DNA of 64,000 nucleotides from Marsupella aquatica (lineage: Eukaryota > Plantae > Marchantiophyta). A model generated the notes under the pieces. It was not told the DNA's origin. It did no database searches and saw only the letters and a list, made by a program, of their open reading frames with translations. Position 1 is the first letter of the stretch. Every line of letters starts with the position of its first letter. This document shows, piece by piece, positions 978 through 30,799 of the stretch. Both the position numbers and the translations under genes were made by a program. The stretch spans positions 15,182,699 to 15,246,698 of the forward strand of contig OZ316894.1 in assembly GCA_973895155.1 (NCBI GenBank). The letters run 5' to 3'.

Positions 978-3900
978 ATGGCAACATTGGAGAAGTTACA
1001 TTTCCCAGCCCTACTAGTAGACGGCAGCAACTACTTGACATGGGCCGTAGATGCGGAAACATACTTCGCATCGTTGGAGCTTGAAGATACATTAATCACA
1101 GACCAAAATCTGACTCTACAACAGAAGGCCAAGGCCGTGTTCCTTTTGCGCCAGCACTTGGTTCCCTCACTAAAATCCCAATACATGAACGAAGTCAATC
1201 CACGACTCCTGTGGGACAAGTTAAAGGCCCGATTCGACCATATGCGCGAAATATGGCTTCCTGAGGCTCGCCGCGATTGGTACAACCTACGAGTGATGGA
1301 TCATACTTCCATTGCTAACTACAACAGCGCTCTATTTAAAATTACCTCTCAACTAGAACTCTGCGGCCATCCAGTCCCAGACGCAGATAAGATCGACAAG
1401 ACACTGAGTACATTCCCCGAATCAAACATTGCACTCGGTACACAGTACCGAAATATGCAATTCACCACATATTCAGATCTTATCGCACATTTACTTGTAG
1501 AAGAGAAGCAACAGGTGGTCGCCATGCAAAACGCCCGAAAAAGACCTGCGGGAACAGAACCACCACCACACAAACCAGAGATAAATTACTATCAGCGAGA
1601 TAACATGGGACGAGGCCGACCAAGAGGCAGAGGCGGATACCAAGGCAGAGGTAGAAACCAATCCTACAGAGGTCGAGGATATCGACAATCATACAACACA
1701 AGAGGCAGGGGAGTAGGCGGCAGAGGCAGGATGAGTGATAATGCATCGGACAACACCAAAGATGACAGGATGTGCTACCGATGCGGAAAAATAGGACACC
1801 TGAAGAAAAATTGTTGGGCATCGGACCAAATAGCCAGGAAACATACAGAATCAAGAGCTAGACTCAAACAAAACCCAGCAGGGAACTACATGGAGCTAGA
1901 AGAAGCAATAGCCACCTACAAAGACCCCGAACAACCTCATGAAGTGGAGACCCACATAGTAACTCCAGCAAGAGGACCCTACACACTACAAGACCCCAAT
2001 CTGGGCATAATTGACAGCGGTACGTCTCATACAATACTAAAGGACAAGAAATATTTCCACTCAATTACCCCATCAGCCCGGCATATGACCACCATTTCAG
2101 GCACAAACCAGATTGAGGAGGGTAAAGGCACAGCCACGGTAATATTCCCAGGAGGCACTGCACTCGCCATCGAAGCAGCGATATTCGCCCCGCGAGCTAC
2201 AAGGAACCTCATCAGCTTCCGAGACATAGTCGCAAATAAATATCAACTGCGCACAGTGAAAACAGACGAGGAAGATACCCTCCAAATCGTGGAGGTTACC
2301 GAACAAGGTATACATATTAAAGAAACCTTACCCCTTATACCACCAGGCCTCTACGCAACTCAAATTCAAGCTCACTATGTCACTGCAGACTTACCTGATA
2401 TCACATACTTATGGCACTGTCGACTGGGACACCCCGGAGTAAACATGTACCGCAGAATTATTCATGACTCCCGTGGAATCCCCCAAGGAGTCAACCCATC
2501 AACAAAACAAAGGCAATGCCTGGCGTGCTCTCAGGGGAAGCTGATTACACGCCCACAAATACAGAAGACAATCTATGCCATCCCGAACTTCCTGGAACAC
2601 CTGAACGCAGATGTATGCGGCCCGATCCACCCACCAAGTGGACCGTTTAAGTATTTCCTGGCCATCATCGACTCTTCGACCAAATGGCTGCAAGTATCTC
2701 TACTCTCTACACGCAACTTGGTCTTCGCTAGGATACTGGCCAACATTCTAAAGCTTAAAGCACAATTCCCAGAACATCCAATTCGGAAACTGAGAGTGGA
2801 TGGTGCAGGGGAATTCACCTCAAAAGCATTCGATGAGTTTTGCTGGGCAGCGGGCATTGACACTGAATACTCAGTCCCATATGTCCATTTCCAAAACGGA
2901 ATGGCAGAATCCGTTATCAAGCGTATACAGATGATAACCAGACCCCTGTTAATGAATTCAAAGTTACCCCTATCCACATGGGGACACGCAGTCCTCCATG
3001 CTGCCACACTGCTTCAATACAGACCATCGGCGTTCAACACAAAGACTCCACACCACTTAGCGTTCGGACTACCTCCAGACCTGTCACACCTGCGGGTATT
3101 TGGATGCAAAGTCATGGTCCCAATACTGGGACCCAAGCGTACAAAAATCGGACCTCAAAGACAAGAAGGAATCTACATCGGAAATGACTCATCCTCGATC
3201 ATTCGCTACCTGGAACCGACAACAGCCGATGTGTTTAAGGCCAGACATACAGATTGTCATTTTTACGAAGACACTTTTCCCACCCTAAGCATAGACAAAC
3301 AAATGACAGGGGACTTGCACCCACACCAGATCAACTGGAACAGCAGAAACTTACTCAACCAGGACCCGAGGACGAAACAAACGGATGCAGAAGTTAGACG
3401 ATTACTCCACCTCCACGAGATGCTGGATAAGATCCCAGATGCATTTAATGATGCAGCAAATGTTACAAAATCCCACAACGAGGCAACCAATGTACCAGCC
3501 AGAGTACAAATGAATACTCCTCCAGCAACAGTAGCTGCCCCTAAGGCGAAAAGAGGTAGGCCACCAGGATCACATGATACCCGACCCCGCCAAAGACGCC
3601 CCCATCAGGTAATTCCTGAAACTACTTTTCACTTCATTAATAATGAATCCGAGACACCAGACATATCGGGTAATGAGGAGATGTCAATTCAGTATAAGCA
3701 TACAGGACAAATTTACACGAGACAAAACACTACTGTCGACGAACAATTTGCTTACCATATAGCTCAAGAAATAACCAATGATACTTCGGACCCTTTAACA
3801 ATCAAAGAAGCACAAACAAGGTCAGATTGGCCACACTGGAAAGAGGCCATTGACACAGAAATGGATGCACTAATCCGTCGACAAGTCTTCGGACCAGTCA

Positions 3901-5591
3901 AACAAGTTGATCCTAACAATGACTATACAGACAGCCGATTTACGTTCATTAAAAAGCGAAATGCAAAAGGTGATGTTATCAGATACAGAGCGCGATTAGT
4001 AGCAAAAGGATACACCCAGATCCCAGGCAGGGACTATGATCTAACATATTCACCAGTAATGGACGTGACGACATTCAGGTATTTAATTGCTTTCTCTCGC
4101 AAACACCAATTATGCAATATCCTTATGGACGTAGTAACGGCATACCTATATGGAGTCTTAGACTCCGAAATTCATATGAAAGCACCAAAGGAATTACTCG
4201 AAAGAGTGGCAGAACACATTCAGGGGAAGCAATACCCGAACCTGAGCAAGGATATGAAGTCGGGAATTGACCAGATTATCCCTAATGATGATTGTAAAGG
4301 CCTTGTGTTGAGCAGTGGCAACACACAGAAAGCACCACTCCAGTACCCCGGAAAACGAAGGACTGGACAGCAGGCATTTGCTGTGCAAGTATTGAAATCC
4401 ATAAACGGCCTGAAACAAAGCGGCCGTATATGGTACCAGAAATTTAAAACCGAAATACAAGCACTCGGATTTATTACAGAAGACATAGCGCCCTGTATAT
4501 TCATCAAAAGAGTAGACACAGAGTTCGTCGTGTTAGCGCTATATGTCGATGACATTAATCTTTTCGGTACACAACGACTATTACGACAAACAATCAACAC
4601 AATGAAGGGCATTTTCGAGATGAAAGAACTGGGAGAACCGACTTACTGCCTCGGCCTTCAGTTCGATCACCTACAGACAGGCACATTCATTAGCCAGTCT
4701 ACCTATACAAACAAAATCCTCCAACAATTCAATATGCAAAAGGCATACCCGGTATCAACACCAATGGAGCTGAGATCCTTAGACACTGCGAAGGACATGT
4801 TCAGGCAAAGACAGGACAACGAACCAATACTAGATTCAGATAAGCCATACTTATCGGCTATCGGAGCCCTCCTTTACCTGGCCAACAACACCCGACCGGA
4901 TATATCCTTTGCAGTGAGCCTCCTCGCACGACATAGCGCGCACCCGACAATACGCCACTGGAACGGCATAAAACGAGTATTCCGATACCTCCAAGGAACA
5001 ATTGACATGGGACTATTCTTCCCCAACGAAAGCGAGGATGAACTTACAGGATACGCGGACGCTGGATACCTCTCAGACCCCCAAGATTCAAAGTCGCAGA
5101 CAGGATACGTCTTCTTGCAGGGTAAAACCGCCATATCTTGGAGAAGCACGAAGCAGAGCCTAACCACAACGTCATCGAATCACGCCGAAGTAATTGCCCT
5201 CTATGAGGCATGCCGCGAAGCGATTTGGCTCCGTAGTATAATCACACATATACTCAAACAGACAGGAAAAACCTTACTCACAAATCCAACCACCATCTAC
5301 GAGGACAATAGGGCATGCGTCGACCAGATAGTTACAGGCTACATGAAGACCGATCGAACCAAGCACATAGACCCGAAATTTTTCTTTACGCACGAACACA
5401 GCGGAAAGCAAATACAAGTAAAGTGGATAAGCTCACAAGACAATTGCGCCGACCTCTTCACCAAGCCGCTACCAGCGACTACACATCGAAAGCACGTCAG
5501 CGCCATTGGAATGCATCGTCTCTCCTCCCTAACCTCCTCGACTAACGACAACTCCCGACACGAACACACAGCCAACGCAAAATCGAAGTAG
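978..5591 (+). CDS. Copia Gag-Pol polyprotein, 1537 aa (Gag-PR-IN-RT-RH)
   Basis: CCHC knuckle CYRCGKIGHLKKNC; protease IIDSGTSHTI; integrase WHCRLGHPG, ADVCGP, RVDGAGEF, QNGMAE; RT RYRARLVAKG and LYVDD; RNase H GYADA, IYEDN, ADLFTKPL. Confidence 0.97.
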   Translation: MATLEKLHFPALLVDGSNYLTWAVDAETYFASLELEDTLITDQNLTLQQKAKAVFLLRQHLVPSLKSQYMNEVNPRLLWDKLKARFDHMREIWLPEARRDWYNLRVMDHTSIANYNSALFKITSQLELCGHPVPDADKIDKTLSTFPESNIALGTQYRNMQFTTYSDLIAHLLVEEKQQVVAMQNARKRPAGTEPPPHKPEINYYQRDNMGRGRPRGRGGYQGRGRNQSYRGRGYRQSYNTRGRGVGGRGRMSDNASDNTKDDRMCYRCGKIGHLKKNCWASDQIARKHTESRARLKQNPAGNYMELEEAIATYKDPEQPHEVETHIVTPARGPYTLQDPNLGIIDSGTSHTILKDKKYFHSITPSARHMTTISGTNQIEEGKGTATVIFPGGTALAIEAAIFAPRATRNLISFRDIVANKYQLRTVKTDEEDTLQIVEVTEQGIHIKETLPLIPPGLYATQIQAHYVTADLPDITYLWHCRLGHPGVNMYRRIIHDSRGIPQGVNPSTKQRQCLACSQGKLITRPQIQKTIYAIPNFLEHLNADVCGPIHPPSGPFKYFLAIIDSSTKWLQVSLLSTRNLVFARILANILKLKAQFPEHPIRKLRVDGAGEFTSKAFDEFCWAAGIDTEYSVPYVHFQNGMAESVIKRIQMITRPLLMNSKLPLSTWGHAVLHAATLLQYRPSAFNTKTPHHLAFGLPPDLSHLRVFGCKVMVPILGPKRTKIGPQRQEGIYIGNDSSSIIRYLEPTTADVFKARHTDCHFYEDTFPTLSIDKQMTGDLHPHQINWNSRNLLNQDPRTKQTDAEVRRLLHLHEMLDKIPDAFNDAANVTKSHNEATNVPARVQMNTPPATVAAPKAKRGRPPGSHDTRPRQRRPHQVIPETTFHFINNESETPDISGNEEMSIQYKHTGQIYTRQNTTVDEQFAYHIAQEITNDTSDPLTIKEAQTRSDWPHWKEAIDTEMDALIRRQVFGPVKQVDPNNDYTDSRFTFIKKRNAKGDVIRYRARLVAKGYTQIPGRDYDLTYSPVMDVTTFRYLIAFSRKHQLCNILMDVVTAYLYGVLDSEIHMKAPKELLERVAEHIQGKQYPNLSKDMKSGIDQIIPNDDCKGLVLSSGNTQKAPLQYPGKRRTGQQAFAVQVLKSINGLKQSGRIWYQKFKTEIQALGFITEDIAPCIFIKRVDTEFVVLALYVDDINLFGTQRLLRQTINTMKGIFEMKELGEPTYCLGLQFDHLQTGTFISQSTYTNKILQQFNMQKAYPVSTPMELRSLDTAKDMFRQRQDNEPILDSDKPYLSAIGALLYLANNTRPDISFAVSLLARHSAHPTIRHWNGIKRVFRYLQGTIDMGLFFPNESEDELTGYADAGYLSDPQDSKSQTGYVFLQGKTAISWRSTKQSLTTTSSNHAEVIALYEACREAIWLRSIITHILKQTGKTLLTNPTTIYEDNRACVDQIVTGYMKTDRTKHIDPKFFFTHEHSGKQIQVKWISSQDNCADLFTKPLPATTHRKHVSAIGMHRLSSLTSSTNDNSRHEHTANAKSK

Positions 5592-5920: not shown

Positions 5921-5929
5921 AAGGGGAAG
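5921..5929 (+). promoter_or_regulatory. Polypurine tract
   Basis: AAGGGGAAG immediately before the 3' LTR. Confidence 0.85.
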
Positions 5930-6076
5930 TGTTATAACCCATAATATGACTTAACCCTAGTATAGGATAGGTTAACATTAACCCAACCATGTTAACCCTT
6001 CTGGACTATATAAGTCCTTGGCATAATGGAAGTGAGTGGGGATTATTGACTACTATCATCTTGTGTATTCATAACA
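5930..6076 (+). repeat. 3' LTR (147 bp)
   Basis: Identical to 284-430; followed by TSD ATAAG. Confidence 0.97.
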
Positions 6077-6978: not shown

Positions 6979-7849
6979 CGGACGGATATGTGAGGAAGGA
7001 ACAAAAGCTTACCGGGATTTAAAAAAACCTTCCAATAAGGCTTCCACAACCACCCTGAAAATCATAAGTCGTATTGTTATTATTTATTCCTGGTGTTTCC
7101 GCAACGCCTTCTATATTTTTATTGCGCACATCATTTTTATTACCTTTGAATATAACAACAATAAAAGAGACAGACAACATTTGTGAAATATCGGAGACCG
7201 AGCCACCCCTCAAGGCATGCACACAAAAGTGTTATTTTCTTTGAAAGTTGTTATATTCTTACTTTGACGTATGTGATATGGCGTCTACAATTTAGCACTC
7301 ATTTGCCGATCAAGTGAAAACACTCTCGACGACTCGTGGTATCCATGCAAAATATCATAGACCAAGCCGAAACTCTAAGCATGTGCACATGGATTCCTCT
7401 ATCTCCACAAGCGTTTCACTCAATGGACAAAGGATACTAAATTATTAAGGTGACATTAAGAAGTTCTTGTACAAAATATCGCAAACCGAGCCGAGACTCA
7501 AAGCATGCATGTACAAGTATTCCTTTATATCCCTCCATTTGGCACTAGGGTTATTAAAAATGAAAACCACGCACAAAAACAACCTTAAAACTTAAATGAA
7601 ACCGCACCAAAGCAAAACACAAATACCAAAACAAAAACACCAAAACAAAACAAAAGCGCTTACCTTAACTCCTCCACTCTACCTCTCCTCCTCTCCCTCC
7701 TTCCACTCTCGCTCCTCCCCCCTCCACTTTCTCTTCCACCTGAAAAATGAGAAATGATGAGTGAAGGGGGAACTCCTCCTCCTTTTATCCCCTCTCCCCC
7801 CGGTCCCCACCCTCCCGACTCTTCCTCGGCTCGAACCCTAATCCTGCAG

Positions 7850-8052
7850 CCACCGCGACCCAGCCCCTACCCGGCCCACTCTCGAGCCGATCCCCGACCC
7901 GGCCCCCTACTCAGCCCACTCCCAAGCCAAGCCCCTATCCACCTCCCACCCTGGACCCGGCCCCCTACCCGGCCCACTCCCAAGCCGAGCCCCTAGCTAC
8001 CCACCTCCCACCCCGGACCCGGCCCCCTACCCAGCCCACTCCCGAGCTGAGC
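7850..8052. repeat. C-rich degenerate tandem repeat (~57-61 bp unit), split by the MULE; continues at 18791-18925
   Basis: Repeated CCCGGCCCCCTACCCRGCCCACTCCCRAGCCGAGCCCC..CCACCTCCCACCCCGGA; the unit resumes in register after 18791. Confidence 0.8.
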
Positions 8053-8418
8053 AAGGAATTTTACGGTGCGAGCAAACATGAGTTTTTGCTAGCGAGGCAG
8101 CATTGTTAGCAAGGCACATTTTATGGTCGAATTCACAACACATTACTGGAAAAAATGACCAAATTTCATTGTTTTCCCTCTCTCAAAGTAATGAAAGTGT
8201 TATAACTACGGAAATTCATGCATGATTGTCATATGCTTTCCATACTTGACTCTGTGCACAACGATATTGGTAAACAATAACCGAATAGTAGGCACTTTCA
8301 TGAGAACATGGTCATTCTTTATACATTGAAAGTATGGATATCCAAAAACCGGCACACAGAAAAAACTATAAGAGTCGATGGTAAGCAGTACAGCCAGTTT
8401 AACACTGAAGCTATTGCA

Positions 8419-11400
8419 TTAGTCATAAACCTCATCTTCTGAATCATCAGATATTGAACTTCTATTGGGATCGCTACTGGTCTCCCTCTCAGTAGACTCG
8501 GCAGACTCATCTAAATACTGGCTAACTATCCCCACTTCATTGTCAATAAACCTTGAACAATCCAGATATCTACGAGCTCCTCTGATTGAGCGAAGCCCTT
8601 TCGCCTCCCAGGTCAAGACCACAGGAGCGTCATCAACCTCCTTCGTCGACTTCTCAGCATAGCACGGAAGAGTGAAAGGCTTCTCTGGAGTAACCACGAT
8701 GGATTCCTCCACTTCCTTTCGAAGATAAAATCTCTCCTCAGAAAACCAATCCACCCTCCTATCACTGAAGCAACCACCGGCATCAGTTGAGGAAGAGCAA
8801 CAAAATGAATAAAACAAAAGAAACCAAATTGGGAGTCCGACACCAGAAGAGGCCAAGTACTTTACTCGAGGTCGAATTTGTCTTTCTCGCTTGAAGGTCC
8901 AGCCTGTTCATCTCCTGGTATCGTGAACTCATCATCAGACCCAGCATCCTGATTACCCTTCTTTTCCTGATCTTTAATCATCTTGGACTTGCTAGAGTTC
9001 CAGAACGCTTGTTAAACCTTTCTGAGCACAGGAATGGAGAATGTCCCTGTCCTCAACACCAACAACGAACCGACCGGAGTATTCCCCTGCGGAAAATGAG
9101 CTTCCATCGCACATAGTCCAGTCAAGGACGATATCTCTCGGCTTCATGAGAAACTCCATTACGGCTTGCATGAAGCCAATTGATAGCCTTTTTGATCCAG
9201 CAACGGCCGCTGTTGGACAGGGGACAATCTTTGGGTAATAGACGCTCAACATTGATTTATGCCTGGCATCTTCCAAAGAAGTCAAAGGAACATAAGCAGG
9301 GTCTTTGGGAATTTTTGCATTAAATTCCACTCAACAAAAGACGTATAGAATGAGAGTGCACACTTGAAGGAAGAATGACATTCTATTAGAAAAGCCTGGA
9401 AACTTTGTTAGCGAGATTGCTAGCAAAAATTCAAAGATGGAAATGAACCTTTCAAAGTGAAAATGACAAGATGTTTGTTAGCAACATCGCTAGCATAAAC
9501 CGCATCAAAAATATCTATATAATATGTACCTCAATATCCATATCGGCTCTCCATAAAGGAGTGGATAATAAAATTGTATATTGTTGTACGTGTTTGAATT
9601 TGTTTTTTTGCTCCACCACAGTAAATATTTGCCGCATGTGATTGAAATCCAAGCTATGAAACACAGCCACATATCCTTTGTTCGAAAGCATGGGTCTCAT
9701 GACTCCAAAAAAGTAATAAGGAAGCTTCTCGCTCCACACATTCCAGGACGGGACCTCTTTGTCTGTAATGCATGTTCTATGCCCTGTTGGAAGAGAAATG
9801 AATCCCAAATGTGCTCCAATCCCAGCATATGGCTTGCCGTTAATGATGACAAGGTTTGGGCATTCGACGCTCTTGGACATCCCAGCAATCCATCGATCTC
9901 CATCTCCCATCCAAGATGGCCTTACTTTCTTTACGGTGATAGAATTTGCAGTGTCGGTTAAATTACTGCGAGCAAGGAAATGTCTCTGGCCATCCATCTT
10001 CAACCCACACATCCGAGCGACGCCTGAGCAACTGAAACTTCATCATCGTCCAAATCCGATAGAATCTGGACATTCCTCTTTCGTTTCAGAAGCTTTATAC
10101 TTCCCAAATCCACTGCGCTCTTTGTTGTTACTTCAACATCTGGGGACTGAGGTTCCTCTCCATCATCTGCCCCGCTCTTCAAACTCTCAGAAGCAGTACC
10201 CTTCCTCCTCTCTGTCAAAAAATAGCTATTAAAATCTGTCTCTTCAGAAACACATAAGATCGTGAAAAGAAAATGAAACAAAACATTAACACACTTACTT
10301 GGCTTTCCCGATATTTGGGACCCATCTTTGGATGTGTCTTTCACTGCACCTTTCCTTGGCTTCCTAGACCGACTCCTATCCACTATTGCAGCTACACCAA
10401 GACAAGCCTTTTCCATAGCCTCGCAACCACCAACTTCAGCGTCAGTGGGTGCCAATTTGGACTCCAAGATGTAAGACTCCGGAAGGAATCCACGATTGAT
10501 CATATGAAGAGCGGCTTTCTCTGCAGTGTCAAAGGTGACAGACCACTTGTCTGAGTCCAAATACCATGGACAGTGAAGAATCTCCCACTCGCTCAATCTC
10601 CTCAAAGCCTCACATCCCTCACAAGGAAACATAGAATAATCCCCAAATTTGTCACCTGTAGGATCCTCTTTAACTCCTGCAATCCATGGGGAGAAGCAAG
10701 CTGGGTAGGACCACCAGTAGAATTTGTTTGCTACTTCTCTGTCTACAAAAAATTGATATGTGTATCTCTTTGCTCTCCTTTGGAACAATGCAATCTCGAA
10801 CTTCTCTCATGTCTTGGGAGGCCAAATCTGCTTGAAGAAACGAGTCTTCACACGAGTCTGGAAATCCTCAAAATCCTCCTCAATGTCAAGGATGAGCGAA
10901 GCTTTGGTCTTTTCTGAAGAACTAAGGATCTGGGACTCTGGGACAGTAGGCATAACCTCAGACACAATTTCAGACATGAGGGAAGACGCAATTGACTCGA
11001 CTTGCTCCCACACTGCCCAACGGTGAAGCCAAAGCTTCGTTTCACTATCTGAAAATTGACCAAGATGAAAGAACTTCTTTCGAAGCTCTGGACATACGAC
11101 ACTGCGCTTCCAGGAGTGTACATCGGAGTTCTGGGGATAAGGACATCATCCCTGTGAACAATCGAGCTCGATGAAGACCACAAGAAACATTTCCTCATCC
11201 TTTGTCATCAGTTCTCTGGGCCTCCTTTCTCTCATTCTCGTAGTAGTTATGCATTTCTACACATTTCTTGAAAAAGTCTCCAAATTCTGGATTCAATAAT
11301 GGACCGATCTTAGGAACTTTCACATTCCAATCAGCCAATTGCTCCTTCATCATCTCCCGCATTGCTAAGTCTTGTGAGGCCTTCGACAGGGGCTCCCCTT

Positions 11401-12322
11401 GAGCTTCCTTCAAAGCAAACTTTTTCTTGAGGTCTTTCGTCTGAGATGCAATGTTAGCAGCGGATAAAATATAAGTGCAGGCATCTAGCGTCATGTTCTT
11501 GGAATACCAAGCTGCCTTCCGCACATTTGCCATCTTTTGCTGGAAAAGTTTATAATTCTCAGCATCGATGATATCCTTGTAAACTGACAAGTCATTGTTC
11601 AGAATCTTCTGGACCCGTTTGGCCTCCAAAACCCAGGAGTTTTCAACGTGACATTGTGTCAACCTGCCAGAGAATTTTCATGTTAGCGAGATCGCTAGCA
11701 GGAAGTGATTAACTGAAACACAAATTTTAGGAAAATGTTATACTTAGAAATTGCACCTGTTCAATGCATGCATTGCCAACTCGATCTGAACAAATGAGTT
11801 TTTATCACCCTTAAAAATCTTGCAAACAACTCGTGGATGGTACTTAATATCTTTCGGATGCTCTTCTGCAAGTTGAGTCCAAGAATACAGTCGATGGTTT
11901 CCATCGAAAACAAAGAACATCTTGTCTTTGAGGACGTGGAAAGATACATGGGAATCACATTCGCGTTTGAACTCCTTGTTTTGCAGCACCCAAATGTCAT
12001 CCCAAGTTTCGCGGATCGCATCAGTACACAATTGGAGCTCTCCATCCTCGTTGGTCATCTGTACGTAAAATCGAGGCGCATCTTCAATGTAACCCTGGGT
12101 CCTGAACTCGGACTTCAGTGTGTCTATCGCAGTTGAATCCTTTTGCAGAGATCGAACAATTTGCATGTTCCTCATCCTGCAGAGAGGAATTTGAGGGGGA
12201 GCAAGAGAAAAACCAAACTCATTCACTCCGAAAGAGTAAAGATGATGGTTTATGACAACAGTATAAGGTTCCGAAGCGCTTGGATCAAACACCGATGCCA
12301 CAACATCTACTGTTGTCACCAT
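8419..12322 (-). pseudogene. Spliced MULE cargo gene: N-terminal ParB/Srx-like domain, central helical region, C-terminal beta-class N4C/N6A DNA-methyltransferase-like domain
   Basis: FFVFDGNHRLYSW (ParB-like); MTase motif-I region KPRDIVLDWTMCDGSSFSAGEYSGRFVVGVE; motif-IV position AHLGFISLPTG; RPMLSNKGYVAVFH; GT-AG introns at 11756-11664 and ~9529-9395; in-frame stops (11195, 10807) and a frameshift near 11075. Confidence 0.7.
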
Positions 12323-13144
12323 CTTGGGTCGTCTTGGAGTCTTCAATCCCGATACTAGCACCTTCTTGTTTGCTGTAGACCTTGTTTCTCTTCTAGTCGA
12401 CTCCCTAACTGGAACGATCCTCTGGAAGAAATACTCTCTAGAGACAACGACGACTCCATGAAATAAAACCCTTCGCCAAAGAGTGTACTTTGCTGAAGAG
12501 TGTTCCTGTACAGAGGATGCAACCCCAACACGAGTGACAAACGTCAACAACAATCAGTATCGGATAGCCGTACAGACTGTTACAAAGACCAGTTGAAGTC
12601 CTAAAGAGGTGTAGTCGTGAATACAGAAGACGATATCAAGTCCGAAGAAGGAATAACAGAAATCTCCTGGCGAAATGTTGTACTTTTGGGAAAATGCGAA
12701 GAACAACTCTCACGGTCGGGAGTGTAATCCATACAAAACAGGAGAGGCGTCGGTCGTAGTTTGTACCATTGACATTTTGGTGCCGTTGACTATTCTCAAC
12801 GGAATCCCAACAGTAAAATTGGAGACCGTTGAAATTACTTTTTGGCTAGCAAGATTGTTGGCCTGAAATCCATAGTCTATATCTACATAAAATCTAGTAT
12901 AATCTTTATAAATATATCCATAAAGCGTGTCGTTATATGCTAGCAATCTCGCTAGCATGAGGACTCCGACGATGCAAGTAGTAAAAGACAAAACAATGGT
13001 CACATCAACGGAAACTCTTTGACAATTTGGTCGATGTGTTGTTTCCGTTGGGATGAAATGAGATTAAACCTTCATCATAAGGGTCATGTCGACGATCCTA
13101 AGCATAGTCATCTTCTTTTGTTGTCATTTAAAATTTTGTCTGGG

Positions 13145-16100
13145 ATGATTGAGATGTCTTCCAAAGTCATTTTGCAGCGTAGAATGACGGGAGATGTAGT
13201 TGTGCTTCCTAGCACACCAGGTTCATCGGAGGTGACAGTGATAGAGTCATTCCTTACAACTCGGTTTGGGCTTCTAGATGGTGATATCATCTGCAAGTTG
13301 TTTGAGTTGTATTGTCAAAATGGAACACGTAGTCACGAGTTGAGAGAAGAGAGTAGTACTTCCAACAGGGTTTGGACATTGAAGGTTGGATCTCATGTAG
13401 AGGTTGTGTCGAGTAAAGATGACATTCCTGAAATCATTCTGGACCATGTGGATTCTCCTCCTGAAGAAGAGACTACTCGTGTGATCGATCTGGAAACGCC
13501 TACAAAAGAAATGGCCCCAGATATCATTGAAATATCTCCCGATAGTCTAAGGCAGGACACATCTTGTGGGTCAGCCAAGTCAGGAGGTGGTTCAGAACCC
13601 GGAGGATTGGTCAAGAAAATGGATGTGCTTACCATGCCAATAGTGTATTGGAGTGCTTATGACGCTTTCCTCAATATAAGTGGCGCAAATGAACTTGCAC
13701 AATTTTGAAGAGGGAATTAGTGGAAGGAGTGCCAGGTTCCTAGTCTGCCATCGACATACAATGGTAACGTTGTTTTTGAACTTCCTCCCATCGAAGGGTC
13801 TGGATGCGGAGGAGGTCTTCAAGATATGGATCGAGAGAACGACGGCTATCCATGGACTCAACTTGTCACTACGTCTGCAAACCTGAAGCCAAGGTTCCAT
13901 TGGTCTGTCTCGAAAGTCTGATGTGCTGGAATACTTGAATGCCAGAATTTGGGATGTCGGAAGTTCAAGCATACGAATGAGAAAAATGCTTGCTCGTTTA
14001 GAGGGAAAGGGTTACTGACTGACATCTTCCGTCTTTGGGAGCACGTGAGTGAGGGTGGCATAGTTTGTGGATTCTGTGAAGAGCGGCCGCTTTGTATTCA
14101 AAATTTCCCGGCAAAACTTTTGTACGTGTACCCTAAGCCAGGTTTGGAGAGTCACATTTCAATGCATATGTCCAGGTTGGCTGTGCATATGGGATTCCAT
14201 GACCATTCGGTTTGGAAGGGGAAACCTTGTTCAGCGAGAAAGACTGCGGAAGATGTCGTTTTAGGGGTCCATAGATTGAATCCAGTATCAACTCCAGCAC
14301 GTGTGAGAAACCAGTCGATTGGCAGCCTTGTCTCACTTTTGCATCCGGAATCATCATCTCAGTTGTCAAGAGAAGAACAGATGGAAATCTGGAGTTCCAT
14401 AGGTGTGGTTTCCACTGCTCCCAAGTTCCAAGCTATACTTCGGAGTATCAAGATGGATAATCCCAAAAAAAGAGAACTTGATGCCCTTCGTGAAATGCAG
14501 TCAAGGAATAATTTCCCTTTTGTGCAAAGGTACCTTTTTCCTGGTCAAGGGAATAAGAATGATCGAGCGCATGTATTCCAAATGAGTACAAACGGACCTG
14601 GATCTGGTGTGGACATTTTGAGGAGCATGGAGTTTGGAGGAGTTTTGGAAGGTGCTTGGGTCAGTTTTGACGTGATGCATCGCATCACTACTGGATGGTT
14701 GACATTCAGTGCACATGTTTATGACCACAATTACCGGGCTCTGTGTACAATTTTTACTTGTAAGTTGAGAGCCGAAGATACTGAGTCCCTTGAAACTGCG
14801 TGGCGATTGATGGTAGATGTGGCATCGGAGAATGGAGTGCATAATCCTGTTATTGGAGGATTCATAGCTGACAATGCAGAGGCTGGTTGGATTGCTGTAC
14901 GACAAGTTTTTTTGGTGGTGTTCAAAATCCTATGAAAGAGCACAACGATGCTTTCCATTTTTCTCAGTCCCTGAGGAGACACACATTGGATGGCATCAAG
15001 GAGGGGTGTCATGTAGAGCATTATAAGATGTGGGAGAAGTTAAGGATTGCCCCAACTTACGTCAAAGGGTATAGAATTGCAGACGACATTCAGAAATGGT
15101 GGAAAGAAGGGAATTGTCATCCTTCAAAGCTCAAATCCCTTCAAGGTTGGATTTCATGGTGGGTTGTGCGATGGAGACAATGGGGGAATTTTATTCGAGT
15201 GGTAAGTTTTATCCATCATTTATGATCCATTTAAGCCAGCGAGATTGCTAGCCTAAATATCGTTGTTTTAACCCTGGCTAGTCTGTAACTAGTGTGCTTT
15301 CTACTAGCAAGGTTGCTAGCCTGAATACCACTAACATTGATTCTATGGCAGACACAAACTGCAAAAGAGTTTGCCTTGATGCCAAACTGCGCGGGGTCTG
15401 AATCTTCTCATGCTTCAATGCGATCGTGCCAACCGAAGAAGAGAATTGGTTTGATGGAAGCATGTGAAGTTGATCAGAATAGAGCAGTTGGACAGATTGC
15501 TCCGTTCACTGCGTATATGGAAGGATGTCATCGTGGTAATGGTCCTACAATATTTGAGCTGGCCTATCGCAATGCAGATACTACGGGATCGTTGGATGCC
15601 TACGAGAAGGCCATCCAATCTACTATTTGAATCCTTTGGAAAGTATGAGTTCTATAGAATAGAGCCTTTACATGGGGATATTTGGACAATGTCAGGAAAA
15701 CAGAAGGGTAATGCTTCCGCGTCTATTCATGAGAATGATTCTCATCGACATGATAAAATATTGCGTACAATGACTCTCCGTCAAGCTTGAAAAGAAGGAA
15801 TCTGTACGCTGAATTCAGTAGTTTCAGAACTGGTTCTGACCTTGGGGGACCGTCATGTATTCCTCATAATGAAAACAGTCCCACCCGCCAGACATATGCT
15901 CTCCCTCGTGAAGTTATCAATATCTCAGATGATGGTGAAGAACAAAGCCTTGGAACAGATGTAGAAGGAACACCGATTACAAATGATCTTGGAGAAATAC
16001 CATCTCCTCAAAATAGTCAGGATCGGATTTGGGATGCCCCCCGAAAGATCCCTTTCATTGAAGAGGTTGATGTTTTGTATGGGACCTGGCATTTGAGACA

Positions 16101-16839
16101 AAGTGGGAAAGGGAGTGGACCCGTGTGCAACGGACTAGTGGATCGGAGTGTCTTTGGTAGAGAAGAATGCCGTAATCTGATCAAGGAAACTGGATATAAG
16201 GCGTTCCGGACTGGAGTTGTTGGTGTGGCCATTCACGGATTGAGGTTGTCCTCCCCACATCGTCAGCTTCTGTACTTCTGTCCGAATAATAAGTGCCATA
16301 AAACAGGTGGAAGAAGGACTCTTGCCCAACTTTCGCAACCACCTGAGGCACTGCAAGTCCAACAAGGAACTAGGCTGACCCCTGAAGAGATTGATTTTCT
16401 CCTTCAAAATGGCTTTCAAATCAGAGGGTTATCATACTCTGATGCGACGCCAATCAGGTCATTCTCTCCTGCAAGTCGTCTTGACCTCTGAATTGATGTG
16501 AACGCCTTCCCCGAAAGGGTTGACATTGCTTATCCAAATTGTTGATTGAAGACTCGAAATGGGAAAGGCGTTCAACAACGTTTCTAGAACACCCCTGAGC
16601 TTCTCAAACGCATTTGATCTGCAACTGTCGAACAAATGAGAGTCATTGGAAGTGACAAGATTTGCACAGGAAACGGATGGGGATGGCAATATTTCATCGC
16701 TACTCACGAGAGTGACTCTAGAATTGCACACAACTACTGGATTCAAGTGTGCTGCTTCCCTTGTTGCTCTTGTGATGACTTCTACAAGAGGCACACGCAA
16801 GGAAGACCCTACATGTCTTGTAAACATCTCTTAATCTAG
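13145..16839 (+). pseudogene. MULE transposase with GCM/WRKY-like N-terminal Zn domain, DDE core and SWIM finger; disrupted
   Basis: CAGILECQNLGC...CGFC...HMGFHDH (GCM-like); FDVMHR, FIADNAEAGWIAVRQVF, AFHFSQS, GSESSH (D-D-xxH-E); YWIQVCCFPCCSCDDF...CKH (SWIM); stops at 13706, 13718, 13918 and a frameshift near 14910. Confidence 0.85.
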
Positions 16840-17432
16840 AGAGAGACAATCTTGTGAAACAGCCAATTCTGACTGTTGGTGAACTGAGGAGTTTGATTCC
16901 GTTACACAGTAGTTGAGTCCATCTCTTTTATCCGTTAAGGTGGACGTTTAAGAGTACCTGTTTTTGTCGCATTCCAGGTTTCAAAACCTGAACAATGGAT
17001 ACTTTCCGAGTAATAAGAATGTTGATGGTATGTTAGCGAGGATCTTCTGCATATTAAGTGTGGGTCCTAAATGTTGCCTATTTTAACTAGCGATGTCGCT
17101 AACAATTAACAACACATACAAAGATGTAATTCAACCGAACTTCTGTGAAAGTTTAACATACATGGAGTGATTGCATGCCATCCACAACAAAAATCACTCA
17201 AGTACCGGTAGGCAATATTTACTAGCGATCTCGCTAGCAAGGTATGCACTCATGAAATTGAAAAAACTTTCGAAGCTTTATTCAGATATGTGTCCAATCT
17301 TTATCAAAACATCTGTAACTGACAAAATGTTCGTGTCCTACCGATCATTTCATTGTAAGGTCACGGACTTGACAGAGATTAACTTTAAAACTATGGGGGT
17401 TCGCAACGCGGAGTGTTTGTCTAGGGTACTAT

Positions 17433-18159
17433 TCATGGAGATGCTGCCTTGTAGGCGTCTGAATCTGTGTCCAAATCCGTATCATAATCGGACGAAGCTA
17501 GGATGTCGGATGTCCAGTAGTTGTGTATGTCGATGTCCCTCCAGTAAGACTCCTCCTCCTCTCTCTTCCGCTTCTTTGAAACTCCCTTAGAAACGGATAC
17601 GTTTGTGCAAGAAGACATCGGTGGTCTGGAAACAATGCTTGAGCTTGAAGTTGTTTCCTTCGGCGGTGCAGGTCGCTGAGTTGAAGCACAGACAACAAGC
17701 GGTACCCGACTGGATGCTGATCCAGTCTTGAGCGGAGGGGGTACACTCTTCCTTGCCGGAGGAGAGCTTGGTGGCGAGTCCAATGGGCCGTCAGTTTTGG
17801 CGTTGTATCGGCGGACCTCCACAACCCATTTGGCTTTTGGAGCGGAAGAGTCATCGTTCTTTGCCATTTCTGTCTATAACAAACGCTGCTATGTATCATA
17901 TTACTTTCTCAACATGTGTTTACCAAATAGAAATAGTCACCTTCAAAACATCCAAGCTCATCGAGTCAAAACGCGCAAAACTACGAGAAGGAAAATAGAA
18001 CTGGGAAAACCAGACTTTCTCATTAACAATAACGCTACTTGCTGTGAAGAGGTCTCCAGGTATCGAACTTACCTCTCCTTGTGTGACAAAAACTTTGCGA
18101 TAATGCGACACACTCGAGAACACCAGATCCCCTCCTCGCCCGTGGATATGACAACACAA
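17433..18159 (-). CDS. Third MULE-internal gene of unknown function (probably two exons; S/P-rich, KKRKR NLS-like motif, acidic tail)
   Basis: ORFs 17920-18159 and 17433-17867 separated by a short AT-rich intron-like gap; convergent with the transposase. Confidence 0.35.
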
Positions 18160-19432
18160 GCTCGATTGAAGTTACTCTGCGATGCGAAGACGATCGCGAA
18201 AGAGTGAGGAGACGATGAAAGTCAGATAATGAGAACACTGTTAGGGAACACTGTTAGGAATGGAGATGAGTTGAAAGGTCCGAATGACATATAGTGCATT
18301 TCGGGAGCCTCGGATCCTCTGAAACGGTTTCGAGTTTCACGCTTCACTCATGAGGAAGGGGACATTGGATTCTGTCGTGATATGATCCGGTGTAGTGCTG
18401 TTGCTGCAACCGTTAACACCCGTGCTTTCTAATGAGTGCTTTTCGTGTGGGTCATGACCGCACGAAGTATTTCGTGCGAGAATGATGGGCAGAGTTATGG
18501 CTAGCGACTTCGCTGGCCTGATGTACGTTGGAATTATATATTGAATTATGGTGCCATCGATGACCGTTCGTGTCAGGGGAATACGTAATATGTACCAATC
18601 CATGGTCGGGATCGCTTTTAAAACCCAACGGGAGTGAAATAAATAGGTGGAATAGAAGGTTCCTTTTAGGCTAGCGAGAGTCACTTTATGCTAGCGAGGT
18701 TGTTTTTGTGCCAAATTTTGGGTATTCCAAGGAGAAAATGATCCCGTGCGAGGAATTTTTTTACTGTTTCCTCGCACGCTACAATGACCCGAGCTGAGCC
18801 CCGATCCACCTCCCACCCCGGACCCTACCCGGACCCAAACCGGCTCCCGAACCGGCCCGGCCCTCCTCCGACCCTCCCCTGACCCGGCTCCCCTACCCCC
18901 GGACCCCAGCCGGACTGCTCCCGAAGGTTGACGGCTTGCCAATTTGACGCTGTTTTTCGACCCATTTGACGGGCAAGATCAAACCGGCATTAAAACTTAC
19001 AGCTGGGAGTCCAATCAATGGATAATCGATAGACATCGACAAGGACCATAATAATTGCTCATCACATGGACCTTAAAGGATACGAAAGGAAGACCGGTGC
19101 TTTTTCCAAGTGAGAAAGCTTGTGAATCTTGGCTTTCGCCAGGACAGGGAAGCTTGATGAAGTGGATGTGAAGCTCAAAAGATTGGAAGGTTGCTAGGAC
19201 ATGGGTCGCTCTCGTGTGGCAGGTGGTGCTCGACCATTACGTTTTCAATTATGATCTGATGTATCTATTTTAAAGACAAAGCGCTGCAGTGCTTTAGAGT
19301 CCGTTGAAATTTATCCAGTTCATTCGATGGCAGAAGCTGACCTCCGCGAATTGGCGCTGAAATTCTCAACTGTCTACCAGTGACCAGTGGTTGTGGTTGT
19401 GGAAACCTTGTATCTATTGTAGAGAAGTGATC

Positions 19433-22400
19433 ATGGGATATTGGAGTACTCGTTCTGGTTTGCACGTTCCCACCAATTTCCGCAGTGTCTCAACGGGAAA
19501 TGTAGCGATTGCAGGGAGTAGGAATGCCAACGTTGTTTTAGGAGGACATGGCCATTTTCGATCCAGAGAATTGATGAACATTTCAAATTTCTTGTACTCG
19601 AAGCCCCGCTCTGCTCTCTCCATCTCCAGCGGAAAGTTGTCCGTCAGTAGGCGCTTCCCATTGATGGTGATCGGATGTCGACCCATGCGATCGATCCCAG
19701 AATTACTTTGTCAGGCGTCTGACATCCAGACCACAAGAAGTGAAGGGAGCGCGAAGTTTTACAGTACGTGGACTTCTTTCAGCATATCGCTGGTTTCAAG
19801 TTATGTCGTTTACTCCCTTTGGCTGTTTTCGTAGAGAAGCATGCTTAGATCCTTTCGATTAATGAATTTACAGAAACCTGTGAAGCATAGATTCAAGCTC
19901 CAATTGCTAACGTGTCTGACGCAGGAAACGGGGAAGATTTACATAAGCTGCTTGAGTTGTTGCCGGAGGATATGAGAACAAAACTGCTAGTACACGAGGA
20001 ACTTGAAAACCTTGTGGAGTTTGTTTTGGACCTCGGTCGAAGACCATTGGCACGCTTTCCCTCCGGAGATTGGTTCATATCACGAGATGTTGTTTCTTCT
20101 GCAGATTTGGGGCACGCAGTGTCACTAGTAAGTACCTACTTGATCCATATCTGTGGTCAAACAAACGCTCTCCTGATGTTCGCGTATCAGTGCTCAGCCT
20201 GTGGGGGGAAATAAAGTCCTCATTTTTGTCCAGAGTTCGTACATATTTGGTAGCAATGAAAATTTTAGCAGTTAGCTGGCATCACAATGCGAATGCGGGT
20301 TGGTTCATCAGACAGACGGAATATCGTACCGGACGATGTTATAGGAGTGATACAGAATATTTCAGCTGCTGTCTAATGTAATATTCATGTCAATGAATGG
20401 GCGCTAAAGACATCTTACAAGAAAATCCAGAAACACAGATTTCGGCTTACATCAGACTTAATAATTGCGAAGGAACTATGCTATCTACAATATTAAATAT
20501 CGAACGCAGGTTGGAGAATTCGCAGATGACAACAGAGCTGGCATGGATCGTACATTACATCGAATAAGTGCAATACGAAATAGGGCGGGATTCATCGTCG
20601 GACTCACATGCCGGGCGGGTCGTGCAATTTCTGGCAGTGCGGAGATGGCCCGTGACTTAGTAGCTGGCGGGGGATCCCTGTTGCTCATGGGGCCACCTGG
20701 TGTGTGAACTTCTTACGTATTGCCTGCCGGACCAGATCTTCATTTATTTCCATTTCTGTGGATTTCATCTCTGAGCGAATCTTAATTACGTTTTTTAATT
20801 GCAATTCCAGGTGTTGGGAAAACCACTGCTATAAGGTCAGTTATTGGGCTTTTCTTGATTGTGTTTCCAAGTTCATGGTCTCTGGTAACGAATTTTGGTA
20901 GCTCGTTCACTTGTCGTCTCTATTTTCACATTTTGGTTTTGATCAAGGGACTGCAGATGTTTAGTGCAACAGATCTGTTAAGAAGTTCCAATATTAATCA
21001 TGTTTTTCACCCTTCATTGCCTGTCTACCTGTCGTCGGGAATCATATGATCGCTTCGAGATCCTTGTTCAGGGGTAGTCATTTGTCCTTAGCCTGAATTA
21101 CGATTGCCTGCTCCTTGTATCGCCTTTGATAATGACCTTTTTTATGTAACTCGTTCTTATTTGTAGAGAGGTTGCAAGGATGCTAGCAGATGAGTATTAC
21201 AGAAGAGTTGTAGTAGTTGACACGTCCAATGAAATAGCTGGTGACGGTGATATTCCCCATCTTGGAATTGGGCGAGCACGACGAATGCAACTCCCTCAAG
21301 TACACATGCAGCATGAGGTATTTCTGTTCTTGTGAGATGCAACTTGGCATTCTATTAACTTTTCACCGTTTTAGCTCAAATTTCTGGGTTAGTCGGACTT
21401 GTTTAAATAATTCTAGAACTAGGTAATTGCTTCTTATTAGCATGGATGTAACGCATATCTCAAACGCCACGTAGACTCTATTGGGGTCGAATGTGATATT
21501 GTTTTGTTCTTCACTGCACACTGTTGATGTAGGTCATAGTCATTAGAATTACCGAGAACGCCGTTGGTAAGAAATATTCGTCTGCCACAGTGCTTTGACA
21601 TTTAGAGAGACATTAACATGCAGATTATGATAGAGGCAGTGGAAAACCACATGCCCCAGACGATTGTCATTGATGAGATTGGAACAGAATTGGAGGCTTT
21701 TGCCGCGGGTACCATTGCACAAAGAGGTGTTCAGCTAGTTGGAACTGCTCATGGCATGACAGTGGAAAATCTCATCAAGAATCCATCTCTTAATTTGTTA
21801 GCTGGTGGCATCCAGGTTAGTGTTCTCTAGGTAACTATGTTGCTTGATGGTCATTGCCATGGTTCGTCTTTCTAGTGTTTGAAGTTACCAGACCTAGTTT
21901 CATCTAGGAAGTCTACGGTATGTGAAGTTACCTCTGATGCAAGCTGCTATTGTCCAGTACTATTTTCTCTGAGGGGAGGCTACTTAGAAGACTCTCGTTG
22001 ACATGTGGAGTTGGAGGTGGTGTGAAGAGTGTTATACTTGGCGATGAAGAGGCTCGGAGGAGAGGAATGCAGAAAAGTATTTTAGAGCGAAAGGAACCTC
22101 CAACCTTCACAGCTGCTGTAGAGATGGTGTCTCGGAATGTATGGCATGTCCACCATAGTCTTGCCGCAACTGTCGATGCTATCCTTGCAGGTTAGCAGGT
22201 GCTGACTGTGCATCCCTTTGGAGGAATAGAGATGTTCTAAGTCATACGAATGCCGTGATAGTTGAAATGATAATGTCTTCTATCCACGACTGTCGTTGGT
22301 ACTGCTTAGAATTTGTCAATGGATCTCACCTGGTTCTGTCGGATTCTTGGGACTTGACAACTTGAGCAGGGAGAGAGCCCCAAGTTGAAGTTCGAATGAT

Positions 22401-23968
22401 GACTGATTTGGGGAAAGTCATAGCTGGAGGTAAAGGCATGGCGGAAGAACCAGAAAAAATTGTAGGACAAGGTTCGCGTTTCACTGAGGACAAGAACGGC
22501 AATGAAGATAGTGACAGCGAAGATGAAGATGGAGAAGCAGATGACGAATATAATGCAGCTGGGGGACCATACGCAAAGCCTCACCAGCGATGGGGAAATG
22601 GAGATGCTCCACTTTTGCTGTACACTTATCAGGTGTATAGTCTGTCCTAGCCCATGGCATCCTCTCCTGCAAAGGATTTTTCGAAGAAATCATTTACGCC
22701 AGCCGTAGATACGCGGGTCTCGCAGATTTGAATCCTAGTTGGCACGACTCGTTAGTGTCTTATGTTGATCAAACTTATGAAGCAGTGCAGGGTCGGTAAG
22801 AGAGATGCTAAATAAAGACGAGCTGAAGCTTGTTGTTGTCTCGTTACTAACTGGGAACGATTGTGGAAGTGGACAGGTAGAAGAGACATCTCTGAAGCAA
22901 GTACTGGAAGTCATGGGACTGGACGAGTGTGTCCAGCTTACGGATGACATTGGCATAGCAGATGCTGTGTTGGCCTTGCGGTCCAAGCTGAAGTCTAATG
23001 GCTGGGTCCGGGGAATGGCCAAATACCGACAACTGCCTGTCTTTGCAATTAAGGTGCTGTGAACCATCTTCTTTGAACAAGTTTCTCAAGTATCCTTGTC
23101 TTGTAGACGTGTAACATTCGACACAGTTGTGTTGACTGCAGGCAAACACAATGGCCCAGATGGTTAGAGCTATGCGAACAATTTTCCAAATGGAATCATT
23201 GGCACCCAGCACGTTACTGACTACTCATCAGTTGGATGGCAAAACCACTTATGCCGATTTTACTGGATTTCAAGATTTAAATCGCAAGTTGACATCGGAG
23301 GACAAAATTGACGCACTTGAGGTGTGTATGCTGGCTAAGTTTCGTTTCTCAATCTGCTTTTACAACAGTGTAACTTTATGAAGCTGTATTTCAGATACTT
23401 TCCATTAAATACCAAACTGTTGGATGACCCATGCACCCCTACATTCTCCCTGGCAAGTTGGAAGTGCTTAATCTGACTTCATACCCTCTTTGTGGCTAAA
23501 TTTCGGTTGCGTTGAAGGAACAAAGGCAATCGTCGTTAGCTATGTCAAAGTTTTCAGATAGATGAGGGAGAAACGAAGTAATCACTATTGATATCGGTCT
23601 GTACATATTGTTTGTTCAACCCTGTTCCTTGCCATGATATGCATAAGCTGAGGAGCGTCTGTTCCATGTACGTGCAGGAGGCGAGGCTGGCAATCGAACA
23701 ATTTGTCATACCGTATGGGCAGCCTGTGGAATTGCTCCCTAGGACATTAGAAATAATGGCTTTACAGATTAAACTAGTTGAGGGTTACCAGCTTCAAACA
23801 GATCAAGCTGGCACAAGCGTCGCTTCTCGTCTTCGGATTCTCCCCTCACATGTTCTTTATAGCAATGATTCACCAGATGAGAAAGATATCAAGAAATCCA
23901 CGTTGGGGCCAGATATGAACATTCAAAGTGGAACGAGTGTGAGTAGGTTACCTGTATTGCCCACTTAA
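19433..23968 (+). CDS. ycf45: Nuclear ycf45-like / SpoIIIAA-like AAA+ ATPase with C-terminal R3H-like region and probable plastid transit peptide; ~11 exons
   Basis: Approximate exons 19433-19763, 19925-20127, 20510-20699, 20811-20835, 21167-21317, 21624-21815, 22027-22191, 22370-22632, 22877-23053, 23142-23321, 23678-23968 with GT-AG borders; motifs [81 protein letters not shown]. Confidence 0.92.
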
Positions 23969-23989
23969 TAATCAAGTGGGCGTTAGTAT

Positions 23990-24041
23990 GATATATATTC
24001 CAAGTAACATGCCTAGATATATATTCCAAGTAACATGCCTA
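23990..24041. repeat. 26-bp tandem duplication in the ycf45 3' region
   Basis: GATATATATTCCAAGTAACATGCCTA x2. Confidence 0.85.
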
Positions 24042-24560: not shown

Positions 24561-24744
24561 AAATTTTGATTTATATTTTCACTTAAGGTACTATTGAACC
24601 ATTCCACAAGGAGTTGGGTGTTGGAGTCTAAGTGTTTAGGTAGTCAAGTTCTACAATTATCTCTGACAAACAATACAAGACATAAGTTATTGAGTGTGTT
24701 ATTCATGATTGATAATTGAAGGGGGAAAAGGTTCAATAAAACAT

Positions 24745-30513: not shown

Positions 30514-30799
30514 CCAGGAGGGTTTGACAATGGCTTGTCCTAGCCTACAGGAAGAAACACAGTTTATTAGGAAAAAACAAGGAGCAATCTACAAGTAGCG
30601 TTAGGCAATCTTAAAACTAAGACACAGAGATTTAAGAAGACAATGGAGATCAAAGACAACTTACTCGTTGATGGTGTGCATCGCCACTTCAATTTCAATC
30701 AGAGATCCCTTGTCTCCCTTAAATATTGTATAGAGCACACACAGGCGGTATTTTGGATTTTTGGGGGTTCTCCTTTGTGATTAGTGTCCATGAGTACAA

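Follow-up and report, generated by a model that had tools for sequence, protein, structure and literature searches.

Transposon accessory genes that join a ParB domain to a DNA methyltransferase (MTase) domain are already known from algae, as is the motif-guided anti-silencing system of the VANDAL elements and their VANC proteins. The Sola1 transposon of the brown alga Ectocarpus carries such an accessory gene, with ParB and N4/N6-MTase domains, opposite its transposase gene; comparable genes have reportedly been seen in red and green algae too, and the accessory protein of Sola1-1_Ec32, about 1100 amino acids long, is proposed to bind its own element (PMC12477816). Inverted-repeat arrays of the red-algal elements with the accessory genes PAG2 and PAG3 have been proposed as ParB sites (bioRxiv 10.1101/2025.02.11.637652), and VANC21 binds motifs that lie in introns and between genes of the Mutator-like element encoding it (PMC5735166). 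Here we describe a locus within 64,000 nucleotides of the liverwort Marsupella aquatica (contig OZ316894.1, positions 15,182,699 to 15,246,698; this whole stretch is hereafter the window), in which a Mutator-like transposon of 10.7 kb carries a decayed accessory gene with a ParB-like exon and an MTase-like domain whose catalytic motif IV departs from the canonical form. No paper was found on a catalytically disarmed ParB-MTase transposon gene of land plants, on a liverwort element so built, on its xLP[TN]G motif or on its palindromes, in a literature search that left most subscription journals and Repbase outside its reach.

The locus resembles each of the described systems in part. As in Sola1-1_Ec32, the accessory gene lies on the strand opposite the transposase-like gene and combines a ParB-like part with an N4C/N6A-type MTase domain. 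Unlike Sola1, a brown-algal element with a 4-bp target-site duplication and a 282-bp terminal inverted repeat (TIR), it occurs in a plant, with a 9-bp duplication and barely any TIR. For Sola1 a working methylase is predicted by its authors, where the domain here is apparently disarmed, and the likeness is one of description (PMC12477816). The PAG2 and PAG3 accessory genes, of Plavaka/Mutator elements, similarly bring ParB-like and N6-adenine methylase domains together on DNA transposons, although there ParB is fused to a 2-oxoglutarate oxygenase and the methylase to a SET domain, whereas here the ParB-like and MTase-like parts belong to one gene; their repeats form tandem arrays, whereas our palindromes are dispersed in introns and accompany a disarmed MTase (bioRxiv 10.1101/2025.02.11.637652). 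With VANC and VANDAL the element shares weak TIRs, an accessory gene and short family-specific motifs in intronic, intergenic and terminal non-coding DNA, but VANC recognizes a 9-mer that frequently occurs as tandem repeats, rather than an 18-bp palindrome, and binding and hypomethylation have been shown for VANC, whereas both would be predictions for the present system (PMC5735166). As to homology with VANC, no exon gave a Pfam family match, and no direct comparison with VANC was made. The DIRS1 retrotransposon, finally, has an MTase domain that is considered inactive in every copy, but that domain is of group 2 (PCIF1-related) and part of a retrotransposon polyprotein, whereas ours has the group-1 permuted fold and sits in a DNA transposon (PMC4738411).

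Motif IV of the MTase-like domain

The window is repeat-rich, plant-like eukaryotic DNA with spliced genes, and every copy of the MTase-like gene in it is interrupted by stops or frameshifts. Copies 2 and 3 share 74% identity; copy 1, within the transposon, has 30-32% identity to either of them. On the minus strand, motif IV reads GFISLPTG from 9805 in copy 1, GFIYLPTG from 25026 in copy 2 and GFIYLLTG from 51205 in copy 3, while the S-adenosylmethionine (SAM) loop reads DWTMCDGSS from 9123 in copy 1 and DWTAGAGSS from 50599 in copy 3; a preliminary description of the window had listed these five strings, and all were located. Its statement that the copies have LPTG in common holds for copies 1 and 2 and fails for the LLTG of copy 3. 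It had also called motif IV non-canonical, which is right for positions 1 and 4 but not for the LP pair, an ordinary feature, since annotated phage beta-class MTases have DLPY or DIPY. Seven annotated phage MTases, retrieved by tblastn with P0010, a spliced gene model of a homolog from Calypogeia, have DLPY, DIPY or DPPY. Given this precedent, the real departures are from Asp to Ser or Tyr at position 1 and from Tyr to Thr at position 4. The canonical mechanism requires a polar residue at the first position and an aromatic residue at the fourth (PMC4738411, Box 1).

Two profile alignments put the xLPTG string on the DLPYG or DIPY of phage enzymes and so identify it as motif IV. Alignment by HH-align of the family (31 sequences) with the seven phage beta-class MTases gave a probability of 92 and an E value of 5.8e-7, with FIFLPNS paired with VFCDLPYG. 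A HMMER profile gave the same register for a single phage enzyme, of the DLPY type, at a low score of 1.7 bits over that stretch, and set the WNxWD of the family opposite NHWD in that enzyme. The N-half alone gave no usable match in the Atlas. A canonical motif IV elsewhere in the gene would have changed the picture; a scan of six copy spans found no [DNS][ILVP]P[YFW] string in any minus-strand frame.

Searched against 1.84 billion proteins, a profile built from the three N-halves gave 46 matches at E<=0.001. Forty of these span the motif, those left out being a spurious repeat protein (P0045) and five fragments. The named domain homologs come from the liverworts Calypogeia fissa and Riccia sorocarpa (source looked up for 20 of the 46, the named ones being five from Calypogeia and one from Riccia). 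Canonical motif IV occurs in 0 of the 40 homologs and in none of the three window copies; DPPY or SPPY, which the preliminary description had named as a counter-finding should intact copies carry it, is absent from all 40. Position 1 is Ala in twelve homologs, Tyr in ten, Phe in eight, Ser in four, Cys in three, and Arg, Thr and Asp in one each; position 3 is Pro in 38 of 40; position 4 is Thr in 29 and Asn in six, with five single occurrences of other residues, and is aromatic in none. A second search (14 matches among 7997 scored) added sister sequences that retain Asp, two proteins from Riccia reading DIPT and others having DCPN-like strings, and these likewise do without the aromatic residue. 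In a tree of 45 rows, a branch with support of 90/84 sets apart the sequences with Asp, together with P0035, and the other 34 group at 83/67, neither branch being starred. This weak separation gives no more than a suggestion that the aromatic residue was lost first and Asp afterwards.

Between copies 2 and 3, over 112 codons, dS (synonymous divergence) is 0.74 and dN (nonsynonymous divergence) 0.12, for a dN/dS of 0.17 (bootstrap 0.09-0.29), the mark of purifying selection. The element itself is multi-copy in four public sequencing runs, with 575-1266 matching contigs per run. Contigs over the motif, numbering 27, 26, 23 and 5 in the four runs and limited to close copies, vary at five places, none of them within 9787-9800, where no change exceeds 4%; the variants restore neither Asp nor Tyr, and in two of the runs one of them replaces Thr by Ile in a fraction of the copies. 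Judged from these sequences, the change in motif IV is ancient, family-wide and under selection, and is not decay. The earlier proposal that it predates the decay of the copies agrees both with the 0 of 40 homologs and with the dN/dS of 0.17, and its view that the protein is not a normal writer is borne out by the absence of a canonical motif from copies and homologs alike. With fixed residues on either side, the variation of position 1 between Ala, Tyr, Phe, Ser and Cys most plausibly reflects release from catalysis; free drift at a base-binding position is a poor fit to a new catalytic residue. Quite probably, on this sequence evidence, the MTase-like domain performs no methyl transfer and is a pseudo-enzyme.

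An AlphaFold2 model of P0010, predicted from a 50-row alignment with a mean local confidence (pLDDT) of 71, had CcrM as its best Foldseek match (E 3.3e-7). In VIA-align, ranks 1 to 11 were all beta-class (Z 10.5-12.7, root-mean-square deviation 3.5-5.0 over 171-218 residues), namely CcrM, M.MboIIA, M.BceJIV, rotifer N4CMT, M.PvuII and six more, with METTL3 and MTA1 types after them. The Pfam family PF01555 matches the C-half of 5 of 50 members (best E 2.7e-5), the Atlas search returned PF01555 clusters at 0.94, and single-sequence searches of PDB sequences gave weak beta-class matches for the C-half; the family profile had no match at E<=1 among PDB sequences. On the predicted model of this homolog, the domain has the fold of a beta-class amino-MTase, a permuted Rossmann fold with motif IV before motif I. 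It shares this fold and motif order with the prokaryotic enzymes CcrM, M.MboIIA, M.BceJIV, M.PvuII and M.RsrI (PF01555), and unlike them has no [DNS]PP[YFW], replaces DPFxGxGT by DWxxGxG and HPTxKP by RxS, is interrupted by a spliceosomal intron and is fused to a long N-terminal part.

The SAM loop, too, is altered, and conserved in its altered form. Motif I has W-[TSR] in place of P-F in 9 of the 9 C-halves read, the Asp of motif III is mostly replaced by Ser, and P, T/N and G together with W-N-x-W-D downstream of motif IV are conserved. Copy 1 alone among the nine has Cys for the first Gly (DWTMCDG), which is probably decay. A pocket so remodelled yet conserved, with an invariant Trp, may have a structural or regulatory role.

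The group-I clade 2 methylases with an SLPD motif were considered as relatives. They have the permuted fold, a motif IV that begins S-L-P as in copy 1, and no HPTxKP, but their SLPD is invariant and accompanied by FYQTD (PMC4738411), whereas SLPD is found in 0 of the 40 homologs here, those with Ser at position 1 included. We set the link aside: gp12, one member of that clade, scored -2.3 bits against the family profile, and a genome scan for further members gave one spurious 13-residue match. A separate observation is a ParB-MTase fusion in halovirus HCTV-2 (L014, 3554-5782), which stands directly 5' of an SLPD-type MTase and shows no detected similarity to the window proteins.

Palindromes and the proposed role of the accessory protein

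The palindrome GCTAGC-N6-GCTAGC, with at most two mismatches, occurs ten times in 7500-19000, where 60 dinucleotide shuffles gave a mean of 0.08 and a maximum of 1. The spacing of the half-sites is always 12, with none at 10, 11, 13 or 14, and the other 52 kb of the window hold four weaker matches. All ten lie outside the coding spans, drawn from open reading frames (ORFs) and homology, which cover 5705 of the 11501 bases. Two are in the intron of the MTase-like domain (9407-9424 and 9477-9494), one between the ParB-like and helical exons (11682-11699), two between the two divergent genes (12845-12862 and 12939-12956, the latter perfect), two between transposase-like coding pieces (15235-15252 and 15303-15320), two 3' of the transposase-like gene (17086-17103 and 17221-17238), and one in the right subterminal region (18500-18517). 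Single half-sites stand at 8088, 18670 and 18690; extended half-sites span 8088 to 18690, within the ends of the element, with one outside. A metagenome motif scan returned three loci, of which L013 (1059 bases) is the sole homolog: it has the same palindrome in the same MTase intron, and its protein is 37% identical. The other two, L011 and L012, were rejected as chance matches in bacterial DNA. Palindromes with a spacer of 7 accompany families 2 and 3, in an intron of copy 2 (25514) and beside a fourth fragment of the gene (40225), two cases without statistics. By analogy with VANC, dispersed palindromes specific to the element lend indirect support to a self-binding role. Of the functions suggested in the preliminary description, a base-flipping reader is conjectural and a shield against host 5-methylcytosine MTases is plausible.

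The best overall explanation, to which we give a rough probability of 0.47, is that a disarmed beta-class MTase fold acts, without methyl transfer, within a transposon accessory protein that would bind the element's own dispersed palindromes and protect it from silencing. Such binding would preserve an unmethylated or transcribed state of the element, in the manner of VANC on VANDAL elements. We put the chance that the protein is a palindrome binder at about even, and that of a VANC-like self-binding role slightly lower; that binding keeps the element unmethylated or transcribed, an analogy with VANC, is a tentative proposal. A fuller version of the idea must be called doubtful: liverwort Mutator-like transposons would have rebuilt a phage-type ParB-MTase into an anti-silencing machine that loads on parS-like intron palindromes and spreads, whose dead domain grips or flips bases and blocks host 5-methylcytosine enzymes, protein and spacer co-diverging between families. 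Were it true, land plants would have evolved sequence-specific anti-silencing of the VANC kind a second time and independently, now from a bacterial epigenetic writer converted into a shield.

If the anti-silencing reading is right, the element would carry a sequence-specific epigenetic shield unrelated to VANC. The family opens a transposon-host conflict to direct tests in liverworts. Binding or marking of their own elements by ParB-MTase transposon proteins has so far been proposed, not shown; the present locus provides a land-plant case with mapped candidate binding sites, an 18-bp palindrome with a family-specific spacer. Because the MTase domain was kept under selection after the loss of its catalytic residues, marking of DNA would not be the whole story for the class.

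Several observations weigh against protection by a disarmed palindrome binder. D-W-x-x-G-x-G and the Glu of motif II are kept in the nine C-halves read, as would be expected of an enzyme. The register of motif IV depends on sequence profiles, structural searches giving ranges rather than residue pairs, and no alignment was obtained between a three-sequence, window-only alignment and a phage enzyme. The ParB-like exon has weak matches, to a PHROG ParB-like family (E 0.051) and to the DGQHR domain (E 0.071). The pieces of the transposase-like gene, separate and frameshifted, matched nothing in Pfam, NCBIfam, PHROG or PDB. All window copies of the accessory gene are broken and no intact full-length gene was found, the longest match being 643 amino acids without the ParB part. 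The observed/expected (o/e) ratio of CpG is 0.69 in the element and 0.70 in the neighbouring host gene, no clear excess. Half-sites lie near both ends of the element, where a transposase would bind, and a 2026 preprint describes sequence-specific activation by a Mu transposase itself (bioRxiv 10.64898/2026.08.24.746577).

The last two points agree with a different use of the same pseudo-enzyme, in which palindrome binding is the work of the transposase and the accessory protein, with no role in silencing, is a MURB-like scaffold or integration factor. At either end of the element, where the terminal repeats are poor, half-sites are clustered at 35-120 bases from the terminus, and mudrB is apparently required for integration (PMC6446971). 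Most full palindromes, however, are internal, in introns and between genes, which is the VANC pattern (PMC5735166); the palindrome accompanies the accessory-gene intron in L013; and ParB-type proteins bind inverted repeats (bioRxiv 10.1101/2025.02.11.637652). We regard such a helper as unlikely. A partner or decoy in the manner of METTL14, with the dead domain pairing with an active beta-class enzyme of the host, such as a liverwort writer of N4-methylcytosine (4mC), and recruiting or poisoning it, has in its favour that METTL3/14 and MTA1/9 share the fold, that inactive METTL14 is the textbook case, and that Marchantia has beta-type 4mC enzymes with TSPPY (bioRxiv 10.1101/2021.02.12.428880). 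The element contains no second MTase gene, though, and METTL-type folds score Z 7-9 against 10.5-12.7 for prokaryotic beta-class enzymes, which leaves this reading very unlikely.

Two further alternatives concern catalysis itself. The domain might still use SAM with a non-standard active site, on another base, RNA or protein or as a SAM sensor, so that xLP[TN]G works. Retention of D-W-x-x-[G/C]-x-G and the motif II Glu in nine C-halves, conservation of P, T/N, G and W-N-x-W-D at and after motif IV, the Asp of the DIPT (two Riccia proteins) and DCPN-type sisters, the existence of a clade with SLPD (PMC4738411, supplement) and the fact that Atlas look-alikes are commonest in Myxococcota all speak for such altered chemistry. 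Position 1, on the other hand, is taken by five kinds of residue, non-polar for the most part, Ser usually replaces the motif III Asp, and the SLPD enzyme tested, gp12, falls far below the 9-16 bits of ordinary DLPY, DIPY and DPPY enzymes; altered chemistry is quite unlikely, and less likely than a pseudo-enzyme. Simple decay of an ordinary MTase after insertion, or a motif IV misplaced by our alignment, could appeal to the broken state of every window copy, the LLTG of copy 3 and the Cys in the Gly loop of copy 1, but it is hardly credible beside the 0 of 40 canonical homologs, the lack of any canonical string in the copies, the dN/dS of 0.17 and the conserved placement.

The transposon, its genes and its surroundings

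Target-site duplications of Mutator elements and Mutator-like elements (MULEs) are 8-11 bp long, typically 9 bp. The element (8053-18790) is flanked by a perfect 9-bp duplication at 8044-8052 and 18791-18799 (plus strand). In a scan of flanking duplications, this 9-mer pair gave the best terminal-repeat score among 140 flanked pairs. Its short, degenerate TIRs match at 13 of 20 positions, where 26 control regions reached 10-12. When the flanks are rejoined, 101 ungapped bases across the junction align to neighbouring upstream units of a C-rich array, and the perfect 9-mer together with this restored empty site defines the element as 8053-18790. The insertion target is that C-rich tandem array, with units of about 60 bp, at 7837-8052 and 18791-18915. 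VANDAL-type MULEs have, as here, a 9-bp duplication and weak TIRs (PMC6446971).

On the plus strand, 13019-16840 holds a divergent, broken transposase-like gene in which a Cys/His-rich N-terminus, residues spaced as D..D..D(2)H and, near 16750, a SWIM-like Cys/His cluster can be recognized by eye. The D..D..D(2)H and SWIM-like features resemble the motifs of MULEs. The piece with the DDE pattern, searched against plasmids, gave only matches at E>=1. The element quite probably belongs to the Mutator class. Also inside the element, on the minus strand at 17433-17875, is a low-complexity open frame of 146 amino acids with an acidic tail, possibly part of a third gene.

Copy 1 forms the end of a multi-exon minus-strand gene whose ParB-like, helical and middle parts are followed by the MTase-like domain, which an intron splits, and by a tail. 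In copy 2 the exon order is the same, and the gene model P0053 joins the middle, MTase-like and tail parts. The N-terminal ParB/Srx-like exon (11747-12322, minus strand, weak profile matches only) contains DGNHR at about 11890-11905; the motif recurs in copy 2 and thus in two families. A structural model of this exon (pLDDT 37.5) was unusable, and no match was found with the halovirus ParB-MTase gp11. The N-terminus of the accessory protein is probably ParB-like. A match of the exon to halovirus HRTV-8 (E 4-5) lay among tail genes and was judged to be chance, and a search of viral contigs with the ParB exon, the DCPN-type alignment and the motif pattern found nothing. The following parts, all on the minus strand, are a helical-looking exon of no known family (11198-11677, homologous to 26525-26936 of copy 2) and a middle domain, again of no known family (10270-11145, with an in-frame stop and 40% identity to copy 2), whose C-terminal part precedes the MTase-like domain in P0053. 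The N-half of that domain (9530-10012) includes the motif IV region at 9782-9805, with SLPT at 9796-9785 in place of a DPPY-type motif. The intron that splits the domain (9364-9529) has an acceptor eroded in copy 1; its GT donor interrupts one and the same codon position throughout the three copies and L013. It is followed by the C-half (8995-9363, one stop near its start), with motif I at 9123-9097 and the motif II Glu, and by a conserved C-terminal tail exon (8422-8742), homologous to 49890-50240 and, on visual comparison, to the final part of P0053.

The other copies, all on the minus strand, are less complete. Copy 2 (family 2, 24740-26936) comprises helical, middle and N-half parts and breaks off at about 24740, without the SAM loop; a ParB-like exon at 30667-31167 is probably its own, with about 3.7 kb of other DNA between. 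Copy 3 (family 2, 49890-51309) has the N-half, intron, C-half and tail, and its upstream part resumes at 56050-56206, past a 4.7-kb insertion. The fourth fragment, a C-half at 40571-40732, is eroded more than the others. No longer protein turned up in word-index searches that used the MTase N-half or the ParB-like exon.

The insertion that splits copy 3 is one of two 4.7-kb element copies (42508-47167 and 51310-56048), which are 85% identical and have coiled-coil-like ORFs of no clear Pfam family. At 978-5591 (plus strand) is a copia-type long terminal repeat retrotransposon with an uninterrupted ORF for a polyprotein of 1537 amino acids; its intact ORF and identical 150-bp repeats (281-430 and 5927-6076) point to recent insertion. 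A spliced host gene at about 19890-24000 (plus strand), 1 kb from the right end of the transposon, encodes a P-loop ATPase (GKTT...DEIG), presumably ycf45-like. A reverse transcriptase of the LINE (long interspersed nuclear element) type lies at 56328-58607, a region strongly depleted in CpG (o/e 0.14, compared with 0.69 in the transposon and 0.82 in copia). Next to it, at 59738-61867 (plus strand), are ORFs of a host gene or of element cargo, in which PHD fingers of the NSD type (E 4e-6) and BRCT domains (E 1e-13) were recognized. A tandem array of units of about 78-84 bp occupies 39300-39765.

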